Below are positions 31,201 to 56,023 of a DNA stretch of 64,000 nt, piece by piece. Source of the DNA: a virus (Duplodnaviria > Caudoviricetes); the IMG/VR virus record IMGVR_UViG_3300020120_000084, positions 5,090-69,089 of that record; one strand, written 5' to 3'. The notes below the pieces were generated by a model. That model made no database searches, was not told the DNA's origin, and saw nothing but the letters and a program-made list of their open reading frames with translations. Numbering within the stretch: the stretch's first letter is position 1; each line of letters starts with the position of its first letter. The translations under genes and the position numbers were made by a program.

Positions 31201-31937
31201 ATTACAGGGGTCTGCGCCGCCTTGACCGCGTCCCACGCGGACGCCATCGCCCCGATCTGCTTGGACAGGGCGATCTGGGCGGGTGACAGGTTCGCGTACG
31301 CCTTGGCGATGGCGATCTGCTCGGCTTTGTACGCGACGGATTGCTTGGCGCCGTGGGCGATGGCGATGTTGTAGGTGTTCTGCGCCTTCTCCACCGCCGT
31401 GGCCGCGGTCTTCGCGTCGGTCAGGACGGGCTTGGCGACGGCCCCGAACGCGGCCAGGGCCAGCCCCCCGGCGACGAACGCGCCCGCCAGGCCCGCCGCC
31501 GCGCCGCCCGCCACCCCGGCCAGGACACCAGCGGCCGGGGCCAGCGCCACCGCCGGGCCCAGCAGCCCCGGGCTCCCCTTCAGGCCGCCCAGCGCCTTCT
31601 TCAGCTCAGAGTCATCGACCTTGACCTTAAGCTCGGCTTCCCGCTTCTTCGCCGCGTCCTTCATCGCGTCGTCGAGCCGGCGGATCGCCGCGTCGGCCAG
31701 GACCGCCCGCGCTGTCACCCGGTCCTCCGCGACCCCGGTCTCGCGGAGGGCCTTCGCCAGGATCGCCGACTCGGCGGCGGTGCGGCCTTCTTTCTGCCCG
31801 AGCGTCTCGATGGCGTTTGCTAGGATCTTGGCGCCCTTGGCGGCCAGGACGGTGTTATCGGCGACCTTGCGGAAGCCGGACGCAGTGCGATCCACGCCGG
31901 TAGTCAAAAAGTCAAACGTCACATTTTGACCGGCCAC
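28290..31937 (-). CDS. tape measure protein with lytic transglycosylase domain
   Basis: Long Ala/Gly helical ORF; LWNQESGWN..AYN.SSGA.GIPQ...QIDWGLNYIKGRYG SLT motif. Confidence 0.93.
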   Translation of the reverse strand: MAGQNVTFDFLTTGVDRTASGFRKVADNTVLAAKGAKILANAIETLGQKEGRTAAESAILAKALRETGVAEDRVTARAVLADAAIRRLDDAMKDAAKKREAELKVKVDDSELKKALGGLKGSPGLLGPAVALAPAAGVLAGVAGGAAAGLAGAFVAGGLALAAFGAVAKPVLTDAKTAATAVEKAQNTYNIAIAHGAKQSVAYKAEQIAIAKAYANLSPAQIALSKQIGAMASAWDAVKAAQTPVIAGALQPWLKSVTGLTAALGPIIAKVAPVIQGLGGQFNSLVNSSVFKQFRDFIGSTGAAAVSAGGSTIIDLVKSFMILLPKFDPLIREAIGWISRLGPAVLKWSESKKASDDITKFMQWFSQNGHVVGDLLKNIGGALKALAPGLTSGGALELKVISDFLGLVARLPPALAKPIAEVAGAALILSKLGVLKVGLAITGPVLKWLTGGLVNLGGGAAAGAEIRTAMVSGGAAAGAEIRAAMAGGGAAGAAGGAAGGLKGKLPPLLAPIGAALGPILAGVITGAAIKALGDTLSPKGTFAGKLTAMFAGLSGPVSSSVLHAFTFGGLEGWLTAKIGIPAGKVMNDTMSGIAAGAKLWWGNIETTISASFNIAKEAIRITWDQIKILFLQGTGFILNIMGKLPGPLGAPFRAAHVSIQQSMAAIQRDVATATGNMQASIDRLHGKNVPISVTGSGHGGVVITTSGIAAAGQGNVRFVSGNAARGLYINRGTGPTADDVMIRASRGELIVPANMVQAGAVDHLRGAIPGFASGGFLGVENALGRVAGVAAGVEGRGAAAAMAAGVKAAIAREKAALKAQASAGPAGGGGGPTSASASQAQAYASGRLGAYGWGAAQMKPLIFLWNQESGWNRFAYNASSGATGIPQALPYTKMPRAAWLPSQGGQASAGAQIDWGLNYIKGRYGSPAGAWAHEVANNWYAKGGLVPGYASGGVAGPGAAYLRAWQTRHGGGYGAAWGPVVVNQQIAAMTAAQHAAQVLSGAGGLTARQHAHYKALAAGDARRLAVLNRELAVERAWRGQLGTSDTQLSGFIAAAGRTPALARNVTGWKTQIGRQKNTIAAISAMLGYSDAQRAAIAKAHPPPAPTGVQAAHSYGGDVANNLGTVLAAALSPFTGAARGGMVMDSGGWLRPGFNPVWNKTGRPEQLVPARSGSGKLQIEWVGGNGGDDLERWIRKNVRIRGGTGPGAVERAYGSR

Positions 31938-31944
31938 GGCTCTC

Positions 31945-32631
31945 CTAGAAGAGTGGTATGTGCTGCGGCATCACCGCCTGACGTGCTGCGATGTCAGCGT
32001 TGGCCCGTTCGAGGTTGCCGGCGATGATTCTCAGCAGGGATGGATCGTCCGCTGCGTGGCCGACGACGAGATTGCAGTTCTGGTGCGCCAGCCCGCGACG
32101 GCAATGCCGGCAGGATTTCTTCGGGCCGTGGGCGGCGCATCCGTGCCAGTGCTCGACGTGCGCGTCGTCAGGGTCCATGTCGCGCTCGCAGAGGTAGCAG
32201 CGGCCTTGCTGCGCGTCCCACATGACAGCCCAGTCGGCAGTGATGTCCCGCCCATGCGAGCCCTCAAGGACCTTCTGGCGGACCTTGCTGCCGTTGGACC
32301 GGTAGTACCTGCGCTTGTACTCCTGGATCTGAGGACGGTTCGCGTCTGCGTGGCTTTTTACGCGTGCGAGCACATCGTCGCGGTTCTCCGCATAGTACTG
32401 GCGGTCACGTTCGCGCCACTTCCCGCGGTTGGCCTGGTAGTAGGCGGCCCTCTTCTCGCGGAGCTTCTCAGCGTTGGCCGCGCGGTACTGGCGGTCATAC
32501 TCGCTCTTCTTGTCGCGGTTCGCGGCACCCCACGCTCGCTTCTGCGCGTTGATCTTGTCTCTGTTGGCGGCGCGGTACTGGCGCCGTCGCTCCCGCTCGC
32601 GTTCGGCGGCATCAGGGTTAGGCTCAGTCAT
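31945..32631 (-). CDS. free-standing EndoVII (His-Me finger) homing endonuclease
   Basis: Q.GRCYLC...HVEHWH...C..CRRGL.HQNCN..VG; N-terminal basic helical repeats (YRAANR/YYAENR). Confidence 0.85.
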   Translation of the reverse strand: MTEPNPDAAERERERRRQYRAANRDKINAQKRAWGAANRDKKSEYDRQYRAANAEKLREKRAAYYQANRGKWRERDRQYYAENRDDVLARVKSHADANRPQIQEYKRRYYRSNGSKVRQKVLEGSHGRDITADWAVMWDAQQGRCYLCERDMDPDDAHVEHWHGCAAHGPKKSCRHCRRGLAHQNCNLVVGHAADDPSLLRIIAGNLERANADIAARQAVMPQHIPLF

Positions 32632-34421: not shown

Positions 34422-35651
34422 TTACATTCTGGCGGGCTGCCGGTCGAGCAACCGGAGCAGTTTCTTGGCGTGCTCGGTGAAGGTGCGGCCTTCGACGGCG
34501 GCGCGGGCCTTGCCTGCCGCCCCGGCGCGTTCGGCGGGGTGGGCGAGGGCCCAGCGGATGAGGTCCCCGGCTTCTTCCGGGCTGGCGAACGACGGCAGCA
34601 TCGGGAACAGTTCGTCGGATTCGGGGCGGGGGTCGCGGGCGAACCACAGCCCGGACGCGGCCATCTCGATCTCGCGGGGCCCGCAGGCCCACCCCTGCCC
34701 CGCGTGGCCGTCCTCGGATTCGGTCCGGTAGACGTTGATGCCGGTGCGGGACCTGCGGTAGATCTGCGCGGTCTCGTCGTTGTCGACGCAGTCGCCGGCG
34801 TCGAACGCGGTCCAGTCCCGCATGGGGGAGTCTTCGGGGAGGTCCATCCACAGGCCGGACAGGCGGACGTTCAGCCCGGTGCGCGCGAAACGCCCCGGCA
34901 GGGAGGGTGAAGAACTGGACGCGGCTGGGGAATCCGGTGCCGATGCCGCAATGGAGCCCGCCTGCTGGCGGGAAGCGCAACGCTCATCTTCATGGGATGC
35001 GAGGTCAAGGCCGACTTGCCGCAATGGAGCCCCGCCGGGGCGCCGCTCCAAGTGTAGAGCCATGGCCTCGAAAAATTTCACTCGCGATGGAAAGCCCGTC
35101 CCCACGAACGCCAGGTCATACTCGGGTGCGGTGCCGGGGATGGCCGGGTAGTGGATGTTCTCCCGGTACGCCTGGGGCATGTACTCGGCGGGGCCGATGT
35201 CCCGGTACAGCTGGATATTCACCGGGTCGTTGAGGAGGGTCAGGTCCGCGTACTGCGCCCGGTCCAGCTGCATGTCGTCCTGGTAGGGCGATTCGGTCAT
35301 CAGCATGACGATCTTGTGCCGGTGGTGGCGGAGGATCTCGAGCAGCCAGGGAGGGATGAAGAACGCGGAGGTGCACAGGATCACGTCGGGCCACCAGCGG
35401 GAGGCGGCGGACAGGATCGGGTCGACGGCGAGGCGGGTGGCCTGGTCGCGGGTCAGGAACGGCCGGACGCCGGGGCAGCCGCACGGCAGCCGCACGCCGG
35501 TCTCGGCGAGGACACCGGTGAAGAACCGCAGCGCCGCGTCGAGGGGGTATTCCTCGACCTGCTCGCCGAGGCCGGTGAGGGCTTCGGACCAGCCGTTGAA
35601 CACGTCCGCGACGGACCACGAGGGCCCGGGGTGGATGAGCAGCCAGCGCAT
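34422..35651 (-). CDS. CgeB-like GT-B glycosyltransferase carrying a 56-codon in-frame CRISPR-like insert
   Basis: LLIHPGP..SVADV, ESPYQD, DLAFVGTGFPSR, GINVYR, PREIEMAASG; insert 34881-35048. Confidence 0.85.
   Translation of the reverse strand: MRWLLIHPGPSWSVADVFNGWSEALTGLGEQVEEYPLDAALRFFTGVLAETGVRLPCGCPGVRPFLTRDQATRLAVDPILSAASRWWPDVILCTSAFFIPPWLLEILRHHRHKIVMLMTESPYQDDMQLDRAQYADLTLLNDPVNIQLYRDIGPAEYMPQAYRENIHYPAIPGTAPEYDLAFVGTGFPSRVKFFEAMALHLERRPGGAPLRQVGLDLASHEDERCASRQQAGSIAASAPDSPAASSSSPSLPGRFARTGLNVRLSGLWMDLPEDSPMRDWTAFDAGDCVDNDETAQIYRRSRTGINVYRTESEDGHAGQGWACGPREIEMAASGLWFARDPRPESDELFPMLPSFASPEEAGDLIRWALAHPAERAGAAGKARAAVEGRTFTEHAKKLLRLLDRQPARM
34909..35032 (-). CRISPR. mini CRISPR array, type I-G-like: truncated repeat - 36-nt spacer - 37-nt repeat - 36-nt spacer
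   Basis: Full repeat GTTGCGCTTCCCGCCAGCAGGCGGGCTCCATTGCGGC (34981-34945) with CCCGCC/GGCGGG hairpin; upstream copy shares the 3' 15 nt GGGCTCCATTGCGGC; 73-bp period. Confidence 0.75.
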
Positions 35652-35663
35652 TACACTCCAGAC

Positions 35664-35924
35664 ATGGCCAGGGAAGTCGTGAACCTCAGCGGGATAATCG
35701 ATGCGCCGCTGCCGCCGGAGGTCCAGGCTGCGGAGGACCGCCGGATAGCGGAGTTCGTCGCGGGCCTGCCCGACGCTGAGGGCACGTTCGGCGGCCACCT
35801 GGTGACCGACGCCTGCTACCGGCTAGGCGGCTGCGGTCCGGGCTGCCCGCCCGGGATCCGCGTGGACGCGGCGAAGCTGGCCGGGCACGACGGGGTCCGG
35901 CATCATCCCCACGGGGCGGAGTAG
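35664..35924 (+). CDS. hypothetical moron protein (86 aa)
   Basis: MAREVVNLSGIIDAPLPPE...; TACACT -10 six nt upstream. Confidence 0.55.
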   Translation: MAREVVNLSGIIDAPLPPEVQAAEDRRIAEFVAGLPDAEGTFGGHLVTDACYRLGGCGPGCPPGIRVDAAKLAGHDGVRHHPHGAE

Positions 35925-37804: not shown

Positions 37805-38692
37805 TTAAACAAAGGCTTCACTCAAGAACGGGATTCCATCCTGGCTGCCTGCCAGCATCTCGGCGGCCATGTTCGGGACCAGGAACCCGAAGCCGGGTAT
37901 CTGCACCATCTCGCCGCCGCCCATGGGCAGCGCGGCCGGGCCCCGCTGGCTGTTCCACAAATGCTGGATGACGACCCTGGCGAAGCTGTTGAACGCCGCC
38001 GGGACGGACACGCCCCAACCTGCAACATAGGTGACATTGCACTGAGGCAACCAGGTGAAGAACGGGCCGTAGAACGGGAGGCCCAGCTTGCGCCTGATCA
38101 GGCCCGCGTTGACGTCCAGGTCCAGGCCGCCGGAAATATCAATGTTGCTGCCGGATGCTGAGGCTATTGATACGACGCTGACCAGGGGCCTGCGCCTGAC
38201 CGCGATCACCGTCTGGTTCGACAGCATCTCGGCGCGCTCGGCGGTGATCACCTTGTTGACGAGGGGGCCGCCGGTGGCTTTCTCGAGGCTGGACTTGATG
38301 GTGGCGATGTAGGAGGCGATCTCGGTGTCGGACGTGGTGGTGGCCTGCGGGATGTTGAGGGCGTCCTTGGCGTCCTGCAGCGGGAGAACGCTGGTCTCGA
38401 AGGGGTCGAAGACGTCGAACTCGCCGAAGCTGACACCCGCCCCGGTGCCGCTGCTCGTCCAGCTGTACTGGTAGTGCCCGGTCGTGGCGAGGTCGGTGAC
38501 GGGAATGTCGACGTGATACAGGCCGATGCCGTCGTTGGCGGGGGAGGTGTAGGTGCCGGTGGTGGTCCAGGTGCCGTCGGCGGCGGCGGTCTTGACGAGC
38601 AGGGTGAGGGTCCCGGCGTTGACCAGGTTCCCGGACCTGTCGCGGACGGTCGTGGAGACGGTGACGGGTTGATTCTGGGGATACCTGGAAAT
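37805..38692 (-). CDS. head-tail connector/adaptor (295 aa; probable ATT start)
   Basis: Open frame ISRYPQNQPVTVSTTV...LQDAKDALNI...TYVAGWG...LW.SQRG; SD GGAGGT 5 nt before ATT, in-frame stop just upstream. Confidence 0.8.
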   Translation of the reverse strand: MSRYPQNQPVTVSTTVRDRSGNLVNAGTLTLLVKTAAADGTWTTTGTYTSPANDGIGLYHVDIPVTDLATTGHYQYSWTSSGTGAGVSFGEFDVFDPFETSVLPLQDAKDALNIPQATTTSDTEIASYIATIKSSLEKATGGPLVNKVITAERAEMLSNQTVIAVRRRPLVSVVSIASASGSNIDISGGLDLDVNAGLIRRKLGLPFYGPFFTWLPQCNVTYVAGWGVSVPAAFNSFARVVIQHLWNSQRGPAALPMGGGEMVQIPGFGFLVPNMAAEMLAGSQDGIPFLSEAFV

Positions 38693-52567: not shown

Positions 52568-54290
52568 TCAGGTCAGCAGGACCCTGAACGCCGCCGGGGT
52601 CGACACGTTCGCGCCGACCCTCCAGTACATGAACCAGCCGCTCTGACCGGTCGGCTGGTTCGCGCTGGCACCCGTGCCGGTGACCATGGGCTCGTAGATG
52701 ATCGACACGCCCACCCTGTCGACGATGTAGTAGTTCGAGAAGTCCCCGAACACCATCGGCTTGTGCGTGGTCGTCAGCACCGGGTCGATCGAGCTGGACT
52801 CGTAGATGGGCTTGCCCATCAGCTGTTCCGGGCTGTCCTTCCCCAGGTTGGTCCAGAACGAGGAGCCGCCCGCGGTGTCGAGGGCCCTGGTGCGGTTGAT
52901 CTGGGCGACGTTCGCGACCCAGGCGCAGTTCGGGGAGTTGCGGAACCGCGGCGGGAGCGCGGCGTGGATGGCGTACACGTCGCCGAGGACGTACGCGCCG
53001 GTCGTGATCGTGGCCGTGGTCGTGGTCGCACCGACCACGACGCCCGTGGGCTGAGCCGTGCCCGTGCCGGTTGCGAAGGCGGCTTCTTCTAGCCTGTCCT
53101 TGGCGTCCGCCAGAAGGCGCGGCAATTGCTGCCCGAAATCTGTATCGCTCAGAACTTCGAACGAGCCGAAGATCCACGCCGCGGCTTTCAGCGGCGTAAT
53201 CACGATGTTCCCGACCGTCGGGGACTGGTCGCCGGACGCCGTTCCTTCAGCGAGCCACGCCGCCGTGACACCCGCAGAGGTTACTCCGTTCCACGTATTA
53301 CTCGTCGTGGTCTTGACGTTGGAAATCCGCCGGTACGGGTTCGCACTGGCGTTGTTCGTGAGCACGATGGTTGGCGCATTTGTTACTCACGCCCGAGGGC
53401 GCGGGGCTGGTCATCTCTGCCAGCCTCTGCATGTCTCCATGCAGGCCGGACTATATCTTCACCCGCGTGGGGTGCCACGTACATAGTCTCTGAACCTTCC
53501 CGTCGGAACCTTGCGGTTCCAGGCGGGCTCGGCTGCTGATTATCCCTACCGGCCGCTTCTCAGACCGTCGCGCTCACGCTTTCGCGTCACGCTGTGGTGC
53601 GGCCGTCTGGCAGGACGTCCCAGCAATTCTCGCGGTTTTCACTGGCCCCTTACGGGATCAGGCGACCTGGCAATCGAGCACGAAGGGGAGGAGGTATCCG
53701 CCAGATGCCACGCCCAGGTTCAGCGCGGCACGGGTCGCGGTGGACATGTGGTCCGGGTCCCGGAGGTACTTCTCGAACGCGTCGTAGTACTCCTGCGACC
53801 CGGTCTCGAGGATGTGGCGGGCGATGTTGTTGTCCTTGTAGTACCCGCCGTGCTGGACTTTCTGGGTGGCTTCCTCGGCCCAGTCGTGCTGGATCATCCC
53901 GCGCCTGGCGACGACCTCGATAGCGTCCAGCGCCCGGTCGCGGAGCTCGCCGCGGCTGATCATGTTGTCGGACACCTTGTCCATGGCGTCCCACGGGTCG
54001 TGCTGGCTGCGGACGACCAGCTCGGGGCCCCTGCGGGCGGGGGGGCTGGAGGCGTAGCCCGGCGGCGGCTCCAGGTTGGCGGGGTCCTCGGCCTGCCGGG
54101 TGATTTCCCGGATTTTCTCCATCCGCTCGATCAGCGGCTTGGACTTCAGGTCGAGCTCCTCCCACCTGGCGAGGAGGGTGTCCCGCAGGTCGCCGTCCTG
54201 CTCGTCGGTGGTCTCCAGGTCGTTTTCCATCCGCTGGAGCTCGTTCTTGATCCTCGCCATCTCGTCGAGGAATTCCTGCAGCGCGGCCAT
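52568..54290 (-). CDS. HK97-fold major capsid protein, two exons (54290-53673, 53374-52568; 474 aa spliced)
   Basis: Spliced junction gives GGYLLPFVLD|PTIVLTNN; W.AEG, FGDFS.Y.IVDR.G, G...YWRVG. Confidence 0.92.
53375..53672 (-). ncRNA. group I self-splicing intron, 298 nt, no internal ORF
   Basis: P AATTGCTGGGA, Q AATCAGCAGCC, R GTTCAGAGACTATG, S AAGATATAGTCC; 5' exon ends in U with P1 CGAU:GUCG; terminal omega-G. Confidence 0.93.
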
Positions 54291-54310: not shown

Positions 54311-56023
54311 TTAGAACACCAGCCCGGCCCTCTCCCTCGCTTCCTTGGAGCGGAGGACGTAGAGGGCGTGCTGGTGGTACCGGGCCTCGTGCTTCTCGTC
54401 GCTTGCGCGGGTGAGCGGGGAGCCGGCGGCGGGTTCCTCATCCGGGGGAAGTGCCTCATCGATCTCGTCCGGGTCCGGGGTGAACTCACCCGGAGTGGAC
54501 ATGCGGACGCCGACGATCTCGGCGCCCGAGTAGGCGGGCCACAGCACCGGGCCGTATTCGCGCAGGCCCAGCTCGGTGCGGCGGACGGTGCGCAGGTTCC
54601 CGGCGCTGTCGGGGCGGTACCGGTCGCCGCGGCGCAGCTGCGGGTCCGATCGCATGATCCGGCCGGTGAAGCTCTGGCTGGTGATGGACCCGGCACGGAT
54701 GTTCTCCAGCACCTCATCGGCCAGCGGGGTCTCGGAGTAGCGGGTGCGGGTGAGCAGGCCGCGGGCCTCGGCGCGGATGTCGACGGGGATCCCGATCGGC
54801 ATGGAGAACCGGTCGGAGGCGGCACCGGACAGGTCCCGGCCGTGGTTCCACAGCACCTTCACCGACCCGGGGAAGCCGCCGCGGGCGCGGGACGCGTGGT
54901 CGATGGCGCGGTTGAACGCGGCCGGGTCGATGACCTCGATGTAGTGGCCTTCGTGGTCCTGGATCTCGGCGGGCTCGCCGAACACGGCGGCGTACGCCTC
55001 GACGGTGCGGCCGTCGCCGCCGTCGGCGCTGCGGAGGACGTGGATGTCCTCCAGCGCGTACAGCCGCATGTACTCGGCGCGGGACGATGATCCGTTGCTG
55101 CTGTCGCTGGCCACGTCGGCTCCTATGCGTTTCATCGCCGCGGCGATCTTCGCCTTGACTTCCGAGAGCGTCACCCCGTTGAGCGGGTACATCGCGGCGT
55201 TCTTCGGCATGTTGATGTACGACCAGGCCGCCCGGATGTGCGCCTCGGTATCCAGGGGGTACTTGCCGTTCTTGGGGTCGGCGTAGGTGACGGCGCCGTA
55301 GGGCCTGGCCTTCGTGTCGGTCGCCATGTCCGCCCTTCCTGCGTGCATCTCGGCCGCGTGCTGCGCCGGGTACATCCCCGTCGCCGCCTTATGAGCGAGA
55401 TTGCAATAGCCCTGCGGGTCCTTGATGTACTTGCCGAGCTCGGCCACGCACCTCGAAAAATCGTCGGGGGTCCCCCAGGCGATCTTGGCCGCGCCGGGAC
55501 CGTGGACCCAGTACTCGTGCAGCCGTTCGGTGCCGCCCGGGTTGGTGACGGCCCCGGCGGCGCGGATCGCGTTGGCCTGCTTCTCCAGCCCGGCCGCCTG
55601 CACCCGCAGCGTGCGGATCCGGCCTTTGAGCGTCGTGATCTGCTGCTTCAGCGACTGGTGGTGGCTGGCGTGGTGCTTGTGGTGGGCGGCGTGCTTGCGG
55701 TGGTGGACGACGTGCCCGGCCTTGAGTGACGCCTTCGCGGACGCCGCCGACTTCTTCGCCGCGGCGGCGGCGGTGGCGGCCTGCTTCTCCAGCCCGGCGA
55801 GCTGCTTCTCCAGCACGGCGGCTTCGCGGGCGTCCTTGTGCGCCTGGGCGAGGAGGCGGGCTTTCTCGGCGGCGTGCGCCGGGGACATGTGATGCGCCGG
55901 GGCCTTGGCGGCGGGCTTGGCGCCACTCCCGGCGCTGCTGCCGCCGCCAGAAGTGCCGAACTGGCCGCCGGTAGCCGACCCGGCCGGGACGTGGACCGTG
56001 TTGAACCGCTGCGTGTCAGCCAT
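54311..56023 (-). CDS. multidomain HK97-type prohead protease
   Basis: C-terminal V.AYAAVF, VLWNH, SQSF.G, EYGPV..PAY; N-terminal HVPAGS..GGQF, His-rich stretch, YW..G.GAAKI.WG domain, KYPLDT..HIRAAWSYIN (DUF6582-like). Confidence 0.88.
   Translation of the reverse strand: MADTQRFNTVHVPAGSATGGQFGTSGGGSSAGSGAKPAAKAPAHHMSPAHAAEKARLLAQAHKDAREAAVLEKQLAGLEKQAATAAAAAKKSAASAKASLKAGHVVHHRKHAAHHKHHASHHQSLKQQITTLKGRIRTLRVQAAGLEKQANAIRAAGAVTNPGGTERLHEYWVHGPGAAKIAWGTPDDFSRCVAELGKYIKDPQGYCNLAHKAATGMYPAQHAAEMHAGRADMATDTKARPYGAVTYADPKNGKYPLDTEAHIRAAWSYINMPKNAAMYPLNGVTLSEVKAKIAAAMKRIGADVASDSSNGSSSRAEYMRLYALEDIHVLRSADGGDGRTVEAYAAVFGEPAEIQDHEGHYIEVIDPAAFNRAIDHASRARGGFPGSVKVLWNHGRDLSGAASDRFSMPIGIPVDIRAEARGLLTRTRYSETPLADEVLENIRAGSITSQSFTGRIMRSDPQLRRGDRYRPDSAGNLRTVRRTELGLREYGPVLWPAYSGAEIVGVRMSTPGEFTPDPDEIDEALPPDEEPAAGSPLTRASDEKHEARYHQHALYVLRSKEARERAGLVF

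Follow-up and report, generated by a model that had tools for sequence, protein, structure and literature searches.

An in-frame CRISPR mini-array beside its own recoded target in a phage glycosyltransferase gene: a candidate guide-and-immunity cassette

Mini-CRISPR arrays borne by viruses are known to serve as weapons against other viruses. Such arrays are carried by the Saccharolobus portogloboviruses SPV1 and SPV2 (Medvedeva et al. 2019, PMC6858448), and the targets of such virus mini-arrays adjoin the arrays themselves, for a reason that was left unexplained (PMC6858448). Phages also encode solitary repeat units, named Racrs, that act as inhibitors (Camara-Wilpert et al. 2023, PMC10651486). 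Here we analyzed an insert in a glycosyltransferase (GT) gene located in the window, i.e., the whole 64,000-nt stretch of DNA under study, taken from the record of a soil actinophage (69 kb, complete, with terminal repeats; Table 1). Other comparable elements are the homing endonuclease genes and group I introns of phage genes, which lie at or near their own site, leave carriers immune and empty alleles cleavable, and have a patchy, tree-incongruent distribution, as well as the synthetic cleave-and-rescue or home-and-rescue drives and the CRISPR counter-selection templates of phage editing, in which a guide is combined with a linked recoded resistant copy. Varble et al. are said to have described in 2019 how phages and CRISPR loci recombine through matching spacers and protospacers. 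The insert holds two spacers and no cas genes, as virus-borne mini-arrays do, but it lacks their intergenic position with a promoter-bearing leader: the array sits inside the coding gene, in frame, in all copies, and has neither a leader nor a promoter of its own.

Table 1. Features of the cassette and its host gene in the window
Feature	Position	Strand	Description
CgeB-like glycosyltransferase (GT) gene, host of the cassette	34422..35651	-	Pfam Glyco_trans_1_2
TTC Phe codon	35106..35108	-	TTN PAM directly 5' of the protospacer position
Recoded segment	35055..35105	-	17 codons (VGTGFPSRVKFFEAMAL)
In-frame insert	34881..35054	-	174 nt (58 codons), relative to insert-free homologs
Half repeat R1'	35018..35054	-	starts with a 12-nt junction
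R1' 3' arm	35042-35030	-	CGCCCCGGCGGGG
R1' CTCC	35029-35026	-	followed by the handle
R1' handle	35025-35018	-	8 nt, ATTGCGGC
Spacer 1	34982..35017	-	36 nt
Full repeat R2	34945..34981	-	37 nt; CCCGCC/GGCGGG stem, 4-nt loop, CTCC, ATTGCGGC
Spacer 2	34909..34944	-	36 nt
Tail	34878..34908	-	28–31 nt; interpreted as a third repeat's 5' half
Tail arm	34903-34891	-	CCCTGCCGGGGCG; pairs with R1'; 13-nt junction after the arm

The GT gene likely starts at the ATG at 35651 (MRWLLIHPG), which matches the homologs, and the longer open reading frame reaching 35798 is probably a non-coding extension. More than 1,000 GT homologs were found, and the insert was present in five of the 120 best-listed ones, which were used for this count. 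Neither megablast of the region nor tblastn of the insert-free GT protein against 50,697 phage records gave a match, and neither a cultured relative nor a host could be named. In an AlphaFold model, the GT fold flanking the insert has a pLDDT > 90 on either side and insert residues 189-241 of the GT protein (P0002) have a pLDDT < 50; when translated, the insert is predicted to form a disordered loop. All insert lengths (171, 174, 174, and 183 nt) keep the frame, with zero stops in the GT frame across the five cassette variants. The cassette was spanned by contigs of three soil sequencing runs with zero differences, and it is therefore no assembly artefact. No contig joined across the insert was recovered in the four soil runs compared with the region, and no RNA sequencing run containing the cassette sequence was found.

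The insert is composed, in this order, of a half repeat, spacer 1, a full repeat, spacer 2, and another half repeat. A 15/16-nt block, GGGCTCCATTGCGGC(A), occurs twice (35032-35018 and 34959-34945) at a spacing of exactly 73 nt, while the full repeat (34981-34945) has a single occurrence in the 69-kb genome. Its hairpin, CCCGCC-AGCA-GGCGGG, is followed by CTCC and then by ATTGCGGC. The two half repeats pair over 13–15 bp and look like one split repeat that would close the cassette; the 5' flank and arm of the tail read CCT-CCCTGCC in the window and CTT-CCCTGCC in the other four cassette versions, which resembles the CTT-CCCGCC of R2. Pairing of the long-range stem and of the R2 hairpin was found in 100% of cells, and the three changes that fall within them can all be accommodated by wobble pairing, but only on the mRNA strand. 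The initial annotation, which had proposed an in-frame CRISPR mini-array inside the GT gene, was confirmed in its repeat and spacer blocks and their coordinates on the minus strand, and its insert is indeed in frame, although measured against insert-free homologs it spans 174 nt (58 codons, 34881-35054) instead of the 168 nt (56 codons) given there. Spacer 2 had been taken as the last part of the insert, but the 28–31-nt tail follows it, and the partial repeat described as a hairpin is better read as one arm of the 13–15-bp long-range stem formed with this tail. Spacer 2 does encode IGTGFPSRVQFF, as had been claimed, in the spacer's own frame, but not in the GT frame, which reads SAPDSPAASSS.

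Judged by its sequence, the cassette repeat is a member of a family whose arrays, in Actinomycetota, have type I-G cas genes as neighbors. The handle motif CTCCATTGCGGC at CRISPR spacing matched > 120 Actinomycetota arrays, and the genes neighboring the handle-matching arrays were Cas3g, Cas8g/Csx17, Csb2, and Cas4g/Cas1g, with Cas3g and Csx17 adjoining the array at one locus (L007) and Csb2 and Cas4g/Cas1g at another (L021). This identity applies at the family level (stem and 3' 18 nt) and is not a match to any single host repeat: the nearest host repeats have a loop length and 5' flank unlike those of the cassette repeat, and a host array with an identical repeat was not found. Host repeats of the 4-nt-loop form were not found in 401 genomes of one actinomycete order. 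Type I-G systems use a TTN PAM, and their Csb2 cuts 4 nt past the hairpin, leaving an 8-nt handle (PMC9638904); the cassette geometry (stem, CTCC, ATTGCGGC) agrees with this published cleavage. The leader and adjacent cas operon of ordinary type I-G arrays are absent. No Csb2, Cas7g, Cas3g, Csx17, or Cas4/1 homologs were detected by tblastn in the 64-kb window, and a family search for cas families in the whole phage record gave no match, with its controls also giving no signal. Another actinophage (L130) carries an ordinary intergenic I-G mini-array, preceded by a promoter-like hexamer and followed by a GC-rich hairpin.

Spacer 2 corresponds to the conserved [VI]GTGFPSRVxFF site of uninterrupted GT alleles. 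Type I complexes skip every-sixth positions, which is known for I-E, I-F, and I-C and is assumed here for I-G, and because the guide runs in phase with the codons, every second wobble position coincides with one of them. All nine insert-free alleles examined have TTC and 2–9 mismatches to spacer 2: the closest relative (L136) matches it at 34/36 positions with a TTC PAM and has one of its mismatches at an every-sixth position, and the other eight match at 27–32 of 36. The phage's own version of the target, formed by the first 36 nt of the recoded segment (35105-35070) and encoding VGTGFPSRVKFF, is mismatched to spacer 2 at 15 of 36 nt, with 11 of 12 codons differing and ten of the 15 mismatches falling outside every-sixth positions. 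In all five distinct cassette versions the own site has 13–17 mismatches to spacer 2. The same 17 codons are recoded in all five and in no insert-free allele examined; a metagenome pattern scan for the recoded segment gave cassette bearers only, i.e., no recoded but insert-free allele. At third positions, the recoded codons have 12–24% identity to insert-free alleles, as compared to 65–80% in the flanks, and 70–82% identity to other cassette bearers. The strong signal of recoding comes from this third-position identity and not from AT3-richness; AT3-rich patches account for ~2% of the 17-codon windows in this genome and are not rare per se. The AT-rich recoding is kept in all lineages against the GC3 pressure of the genome. 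The exact sequence of spacer 2 had no match in IMG/VR, and a 36/36 target was not found.

Array and protospacer are separated by 15 nt, the own site being upstream. As in homing elements, the insertion stands beside its own target, the target is kept in empty alleles, and the carriers' own site is mismatched; as in virus-borne mini-arrays, spacer 2 matches a related virus and the own orthologous site is altered. The target is the most conserved motif of the GT protein, and the PAM is locked by a Phe codon (F166) that is invariant in the GT family and reads TTC in own and target alleles alike. Together with the codon phase of the guide, this choice of target looks hard for a target phage to escape. 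Other readings of spacer 2 were considered and rejected. It is not old gene sequence left in situ and running into the gene, as a half repeat follows it and not xxMDLx codons. A 36-nt target-site duplication by a spacer integrase is at odds with the piece between the two copies, which is 125 nt long and itself contains repeats, and a regulatory crRNA acting on the phage's own gene is at odds with the own site, which mismatches the seed at positions 1 and 3 and has 10 effective mismatches in total.

Spacer 1 is of unrelated sequence in three lineages and has been swapped at least twice; in L134 and L135, spacer 1 together with the 5' part of R2 is replaced by unrelated sequence. Conserved through these exchanges are R1', the R2 stem and handle, spacer 2, and the tail. 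Each spacer 1 has a coding-like GC3 in its own frame, which the spacer 1 of the window does not have in the GT frame. Searches of IMG/VR with exact and wobble-degenerate patterns of spacer 1 returned the cassette itself only, and no match was obtained against host loci and host spacers, or at the peptide level against the rest of the window and related loci. A comparison of 1,911 spacers from host type I-G arrays against the window plus six related loci gave one credible match, between an array of a Mycobacterium MAG (L073) and window positions 55197-55234 (5 mismatches, GCG flank); this match does not suffice for naming a host or deriving a PAM.

The insert-bearing alleles occupy at least three places on the GT gene tree, with at least three changes forced by well-supported branches, and an AU test rejected a single clade of insert bearers (difference in lnL 151.7, p = 0.0136); this patchy placement and the AU test together amount to the gene-tree incongruence that is characteristic of homing-type elements. 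The flanks in the window are L136-like up to the borders of the unit (93% and 98–100%), whereas the recoded segment is 84–90% like other carriers and only 53% like L136. The transferred unit has sharp borders, one at the recoded segment and the other where the array ends. L134 shows 81–100% identity in R1', the R2 stem and handle, spacer 2, and the tail, and 66–73% (~60% at third positions) in its flanks. The L128/L133/L141 lineage has 9 extra nt between R2 and spacer 2, a register shift by which the first 9–10 guide nt misfit the TTC-flanked site, and the cassette persists there.

We lean, by a modest degree, towards a guide cassette that borrows the host's Cascade, carries a linked immune allele, and spreads among phage genes by recombination. 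The insert would be a working type I-G mini-array without cas genes, transcribed within the GT mRNA, and a host type I-G Csb2 would cut 4 nt past each repeat hairpin to give crRNAs with the ATTGCGGC handle, while the end half repeats, by pairing, would make up for the lack of a third repeat. Host Cascade-Cas3 would be guided by the spacer-2 crRNA to the TTC-flanked [VI]GTGFPSR site in insert-free related phages; the carrier's site lies 15 nt upstream of the array and would escape cutting because it is altered at 11/12 wobble positions. Spacer 1 would act as an exchangeable second guide. Weapon and immunity allele would make up one 225-nt unit (51 nt recoded and 174 nt of array), presumably transferred by recombination to three or more diverged GT backbones; as part of the same favored explanation, and by analogy, this unit may be seen as a natural counterpart of a cleave-and-rescue or homing cassette. 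Several points speak against this explanation: Csb2 processing would cut the GT mRNA, yet the conserved frame shows that the protein still matters; ordinary recombination and selection could yield the same polyphyly without cut-driven copying; and it has to do without a 36/36 target, a same-repeat host array, a leader or promoter, and a spacer-1 target, and with the register shift of the L128 lineage. The initial annotation had anticipated much of this, namely the type I-G-like actinobacterial repeat (same family as the arrays beside I-G cas genes), the TTN PAM, the lack of cas genes, the own copy with its preceding TTC, the near match to spacer 2 in insert-free homologs, and the recoding in all insert-bearing ones, all of which agreed with our results, and the scatter over the gene tree is in line with the spread that it had proposed; of its AT-rich, foreign codons, the recoding stood and the rarity did not. 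The sequence-testable parts of its overall interpretation held up and no in-silico result contradicted it, while GT-mRNA transcription, crRNA processing, Cascade loading, interference by cutting, and cut-biased copying are steps that we infer.

The cassette offers an answer to why mini-array targets adjoin arrays: a guide and a silently recoded allele in one small unit would follow the logic of toxin-antidote systems or homing drives by means of RNA and borrowed host enzymes alone. If confirmed, it would represent a new class of selfish element in phage biology, account for stretches of unusual codon usage within phage genes, and provide a compact natural design for guide cassettes inside coding sequence. 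A stronger version, which we entertain tentatively and with some doubt, is a protein-free RNA-guided homing element, in which Cascade-Cas3 would break the co-infecting empty allele and the carrier unit would be copied into the break; the split third repeat would then permit processing of two guides without a third full repeat, and the element, if this is true, would be a natural gene drive among phages.

The guides could instead be an interviral weapon and nothing else, excluding relatives, with position and spread resulting from ordinary recombination and linkage selection and not from cut-triggered conversion. This shares the evidence for guide function with the favored explanation and departs from it in the last step alone, nothing in the sequence speaks against it, and phage genes are mosaic anyway; archaeal virus mini-arrays likewise target regions near themselves, which is unexplained (PMC6858448). 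The sharp unit borders fit break repair at the target, without proving it, and we regard the weapon alone as rather improbable. It is also unlikely, in our judgment, that the insert is a molecular scar, i.e., a piece of a host array with an anti-phage spacer, captured once during a CRISPR encounter, with no present function and surviving only because it is in frame in a tolerated loop. Its location in a disordered loop with the frame kept, the missing leader, the lack of detected cas genes in the phage, and the tolerated register shift in the L128 lineage would all suit such a remnant, and phages and arrays are known to recombine between spacer and protospacer. A functionless scar is, however, hard to reconcile with the conservation of the cassette parts in L134 despite its diverged flanks, the repeated exchange of spacer 1, the AT-rich recoding retained in all lineages, and the polyphyly on the gene tree. 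Quite improbable is a Racr-like RNA anti-CRISPR or decoy, whose repeats would soak up Csb2/Cas7 or form useless complexes with incidental spacer content: phages do carry repeat mimics inhibiting Cas complexes (PMC10651486), conservation within the cassette is highest in the repeat parts, and the spacer of the Mycobacterium MAG type I-G array, being close to this phage, implies that such phages face I-G immunity, but the fact that spacer 2 matches the uninterrupted allele, with the correct PAM, and the maximal silent recoding 15 nt away, perfectly linked to the cassette, would be left unexplained, and the normal length, coding-like origin, and turnover of the spacers fit real guides, even if decoy and guide roles are not mutually exclusive.

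The borrowed-Cascade guide cassette that we favor resembles the mini-arrays of SPV1/SPV2 in having one or two spacers and host-type repeats in a virus without cas genes, in directing spacers against close relatives with the own orthologous site mutated, and in the spacer turnover at a fixed position with targets near the array (PMC6858448). It differs from them by residing in a bacterial (actinomycete) phage with a type I-G repeat, by being leaderless and promoterless, in frame in a protein gene and translated, by ending in two mutually pairing half repeats, by the protection of the phage's site through dense silent recoding instead of point mutation or deletion, and by the joining of guide and immune allele in one unit found on at least three gene backbones. 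Like the Racrs, it is a cas-less phage mimic of CRISPR repeats by which Cas proteins of the host would be engaged; unlike a solitary repeat with no functional guide, it has one full and two half repeats that flank two normal-length spacers, one of which has in relatives a PAM-flanked target that is recoded in the carrier. Spacer-protospacer recombination is a plausible route to an array fragment with a self-matching spacer, but a simple crossover in the spacer fails to give the observed order, in which a half repeat comes after spacer 2 and the own site lies upstream, followed by gene sequence. With homing endonuclease genes and group I introns the cassette shares the insertion at its own site, the empty-allele target, and the patchy distribution; in contrast to homing endonuclease genes it encodes no cutting protein, for which an RNA guide and a borrowed host nuclease would serve, and its immunity would stem from recoding 15 nt away and not from disruption of the site. 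As in the synthetic drives, a guide against a conserved, essential-looking site would be tightly linked to a recoded, cleavage-resistant copy, but the cassette is natural, 225 nt long, and without a nuclease gene.

The viral record that supplies the window (64 kb of it) is complete, with 69,089 bp, direct terminal repeats and ~71% G+C, and the phage occurs in soil metagenomes. The protein bearing the cassette is a CgeB-like glycosyltransferase (GT; Pfam family Glyco_trans_1_2) with >1,000 homologs by protein search, typically 335–353 aa long. Judging by where these homologs begin, the GT probably starts at ATG 35651 (MRWLLIHPG), and the 49 codons upstream of it in the long ORF, AT3-rich and absent from homologs, are probably a non-coding leader outside the GT. 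Compared with insert-free homologs, the gene contains 174 nt (58 codons, 34881-35054) of extra DNA, slightly more than the 168 nt (56 codons) of the initial annotation. The cassette is physically real, since contigs of three soil sequencing runs span it with zero differences. In the AlphaFold model the insert is a disordered loop (residues 189-241, pLDDT <50) between a helix and a strand, while the remainder of the GT fold is confident; the protein is evidently still needed. In these phages the region a few genes beyond the 3' end of the GT gene contains free-standing nuclease genes at variable positions, and one GT family member (P0089, 560 aa) has Glyco_trans_1_2 and HNH_3 as its listed domains. 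This neighbourhood seems to attract selfish elements.

Coordinates of the cassette parts (in mRNA order), the surrounding ORF and nearby nuclease genes; positions are those of the window unless an L-handle (a fetched DNA locus) is given
Feature	Position	Strand
ORF with cassette	34422-35798	minus
Probable non-coding leader (first 49 codons of ORF)	35652-35798	minus
TTC	35108-35106	minus
Gene's own VGTGFPSRVKFF codons	35105-35070	minus
EAMAL codons	35069-35055	minus
Junction, 12 nt	35054-35043	minus
First half repeat: arm CGCCCCGGCGGGG, CTCC, ATTGCGGC	3' end at 35018	minus
Spacer 1, 36 nt	35017-34982	minus
Full repeat, 37 nt: stem CCCGCC/GGCGGG, 4-nt loop, CTCC + ATTGCGGC	34981-34945	minus
Spacer 2, 36 nt	34944-34909	minus
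Tail, 31 nt	34908-34878	minus
Endonuclease VII gene	31945-32631	minus
Endonuclease VII gene	L133:4695-5378	
HNH gene	L131:3513-3992	
HNH gene	L138:2928-3212	

The tail does not belong to the gene sequence. It starts with CTT-CCCTGCC in the other four cassette versions (CCT-CCCTGCC in the window), matching the CTT-CCCGCC of the full repeat, and its 13-nt arm is reverse-complementary to that of the first half repeat; the cassette is therefore a spacer 1–repeat–spacer 2 array with a half repeat at either end. RNA folding gave a long-range stem between the half repeats plus the internal repeat hairpin in 5/5 distinct versions, with all 21 base pairs formed in each, and only on the mRNA strand are the three stem substitutions compatible with G-U pairing. 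As the five sequences contain no double compensatory change, covariation lends the stems modest support, not proof.

The assignment of the repeat to actinobacterial type I-G held at the family level. Two CTCCATTGCGGC copies at CRISPR spacing were found in >120 Actinomycetota genome arrays among the matches listed, including Streptosporangiaceae, Micromonospora, Nocardia, Gordonia, Mycobacterium and Acidimicrobiia, and two host arrays adjoin I-G cas genes (Cas3g and Cas8g/Csx17 in L007, Csb2 and Cas4g/Cas1g in L021). In type I-G, Csb2 cleaves 4 nt 3' of the hairpin base, which generates an 8-nt handle, and remains on the 3' hairpin, while the PAM is TTN (PMC9638904). The layout of the phage repeat is exactly that of published Csb2-processed type I-G repeats; the match to host repeats comprises the stem and the 3' 18 nt, and the search of Actinomycetota arrays found none with an identical 5' flank and 4-nt loop. 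No cas homologs were found by tblastn in the 64-kb window, nor in the whole phage record by family searches, whose controls gave no signal either.

Type I-G-family repeats were also seen in other viral contigs. An ordinary intergenic mini-array with two spacers between three repeats (GTCGTCTTCCCGGTCGCGTAGACCGGGCTCCATTGYGGC), preceded by a TTGACA hexamer and followed by a strong GC-rich hairpin, lies in another high-GC phage contig (IMGVR_UViG_3300038406_000217, L130:4930-5180). At the edge of a stretch from a 49-kb viral contig (IMGVR_UViG_3300036820_000550, L129:1-320), two repeats and one spacer lie among sequences with tRNA-like GGTTCGAATCC ends, which may represent a mini-array in a tRNA cluster. 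Moreover, window positions 55197-55234 match a type I-G array spacer of a Mycobacterium sp. MAG (L073) at 33/38 nt, including a 30-nt stretch with one mismatch, with GCG and not TTN as the 5' flank in the window; this is a weak hint that relatives of the phage meet I-G immunity in Mycobacteriales.

All insert-free alleles (9/9) have TTC directly before a site with 2–9 mismatches to the window's spacer 2, in line with what the initial annotation had expected of such homologs. The best match, 34/36, was found in the closest insert-free relative (L136, a 56.7-kb contig), with mismatches at positions 24 and 29, the former being an every-sixth position; no perfect target was found. The peptide IGTGFPSRVQFF, previously ascribed to spacer 2, is read in the spacer's own frame, not that of the GT gene. 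Six IMG/VR homologs without the insert read AF[VI]GTGFPSRVxFFxxMDLxGLNV. Every sixth guide position is unread in types I-E, I-F and I-C, which is assumed here for I-G. The own site of each cassette version has 13–17 mismatches, 8–12 of them outside the every-sixth positions, and in the window the recoding alters 11/12 wobble positions, among them all six expected to be read by a type I complex. Over the 17 recoded codons the window shares 12–24% of its third positions with insert-free alleles, compared with 65–80% in the flanks, and a metagenome scan returned no recoded segment outside cassette bearers. The TTC is the codon of an invariant Phe, both codons of which are TTN; losing the PAM therefore requires a change of this residue, which would account for recoding as the means of protection. 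Further AT3-rich 17-codon windows in high-GC3 ORFs were flagged on the minus strand at 31928-31970, 37858-38188 and 53158-53293.

Using the insert-encoded peptide as query, five proteins bearing the insert were retrieved, and their DNA together with one IMG/VR contig and one metagenome contig yielded five distinct cassette versions. The recoding noticed at the outset proved general: all versions conserve not only the 17 recoded codons but also spacer 2, the tail, the first half repeat and the full repeat's stem and 3' half. Spacer 1 and the 5' flank of the full repeat are replaced by unrelated sequence in the carrier L134, as they are once more in L135; GC3 is coding-like (0.92) for every spacer-1 version read in its own frame, but not in the GT frame, as would be expected of real spacers from high-GC genes. 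Insert lengths are 171, 174, 174 and 183 nt, every one in frame and without stops. In the carriers L128 (4367-4567, minus strand), L133 and L141, a 9-nt near-duplication of the handle (CATTGCGGC then CATTGCAGC) between the full repeat and spacer 2 keeps the frame and shifts the guide register; the first 9–10 nt of this guide misfit the TTC-flanked site, and spacer 2 is thus probably inactive in that lineage.

The insert is present in 5 of the 120 best-listed of the >1,000 GT homologs. When the insert is masked, the window's protein clusters with the insert-free P0007 and P0008, a second group comprises P0003, P0004 and P0006, and P0005 (the protein of L134) lies far off among insert-free proteins. 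Well-supported branches of an IQ-TREE phylogeny of 56 proteins force three changes of state, and the AU test rejects a single clade of carriers (lnL difference 151.7, p = 0.0136); this incongruence shows that the unit moves. The window resembles L136 at 93% in the last 15 codons before the unit and at 98–100% after it, while its recoded codons are 53% like L136 and 84–90% like other carriers, which defines the transferable unit as 51 recoded nt plus the 174-nt array. L134 resembles its insert-free neighbour L137 at 87–93% until ~45 codons upstream of the unit.

We propose that the array would be transcribed as part of the GT mRNA and processed by host Csb2, that host type I-G Cascade would take up the crRNAs, and that spacer 2 would guide Cas3 to the uninterrupted GT allele in related phages, with the recoded site of the carrier escaping the cut. 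With 15 nt between guide and immune allele, recombination could not easily separate them, a linkage that follows the logic of cleave-and-rescue or homing cassettes. Against this reading stand the absence of a leader, crRNA processing that would destroy the GT mRNA, the fact that neither a perfect target nor an identical host repeat was found, and the register shift of spacer 2 in L128, L133 and L141. The cassette could alternatively be a weapon without homing, a decoy of the Racr type or a neutral scar left by recombination between phage and array, but each of these fails to account for some of the following: a match with the correct PAM, recoding that is maximal and has persisted, turnover of spacers, and a cassette more conserved than neutral sites. 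On balance we lean slightly towards a guide with linked immunity as a whole; within this reading, true homing, in which the Cas3 cut itself drives copying, as initially suggested, seems rather doubtful.

Among described systems, the virus-borne mini-CRISPR arrays of archaeal portogloboviruses come closest. They are intergenic and have leaders, their spacers match relatives, and the virus carries mutations at its own sites; that the targets lie near the arrays was noted by the authors without explanation (PMC6858448). In contrast, the present cassette belongs to a bacterial phage and has a type I-G repeat, lies in frame within a gene, is closed by a split repeat, would owe its protection to dense silent recoding, and moves as one unit.
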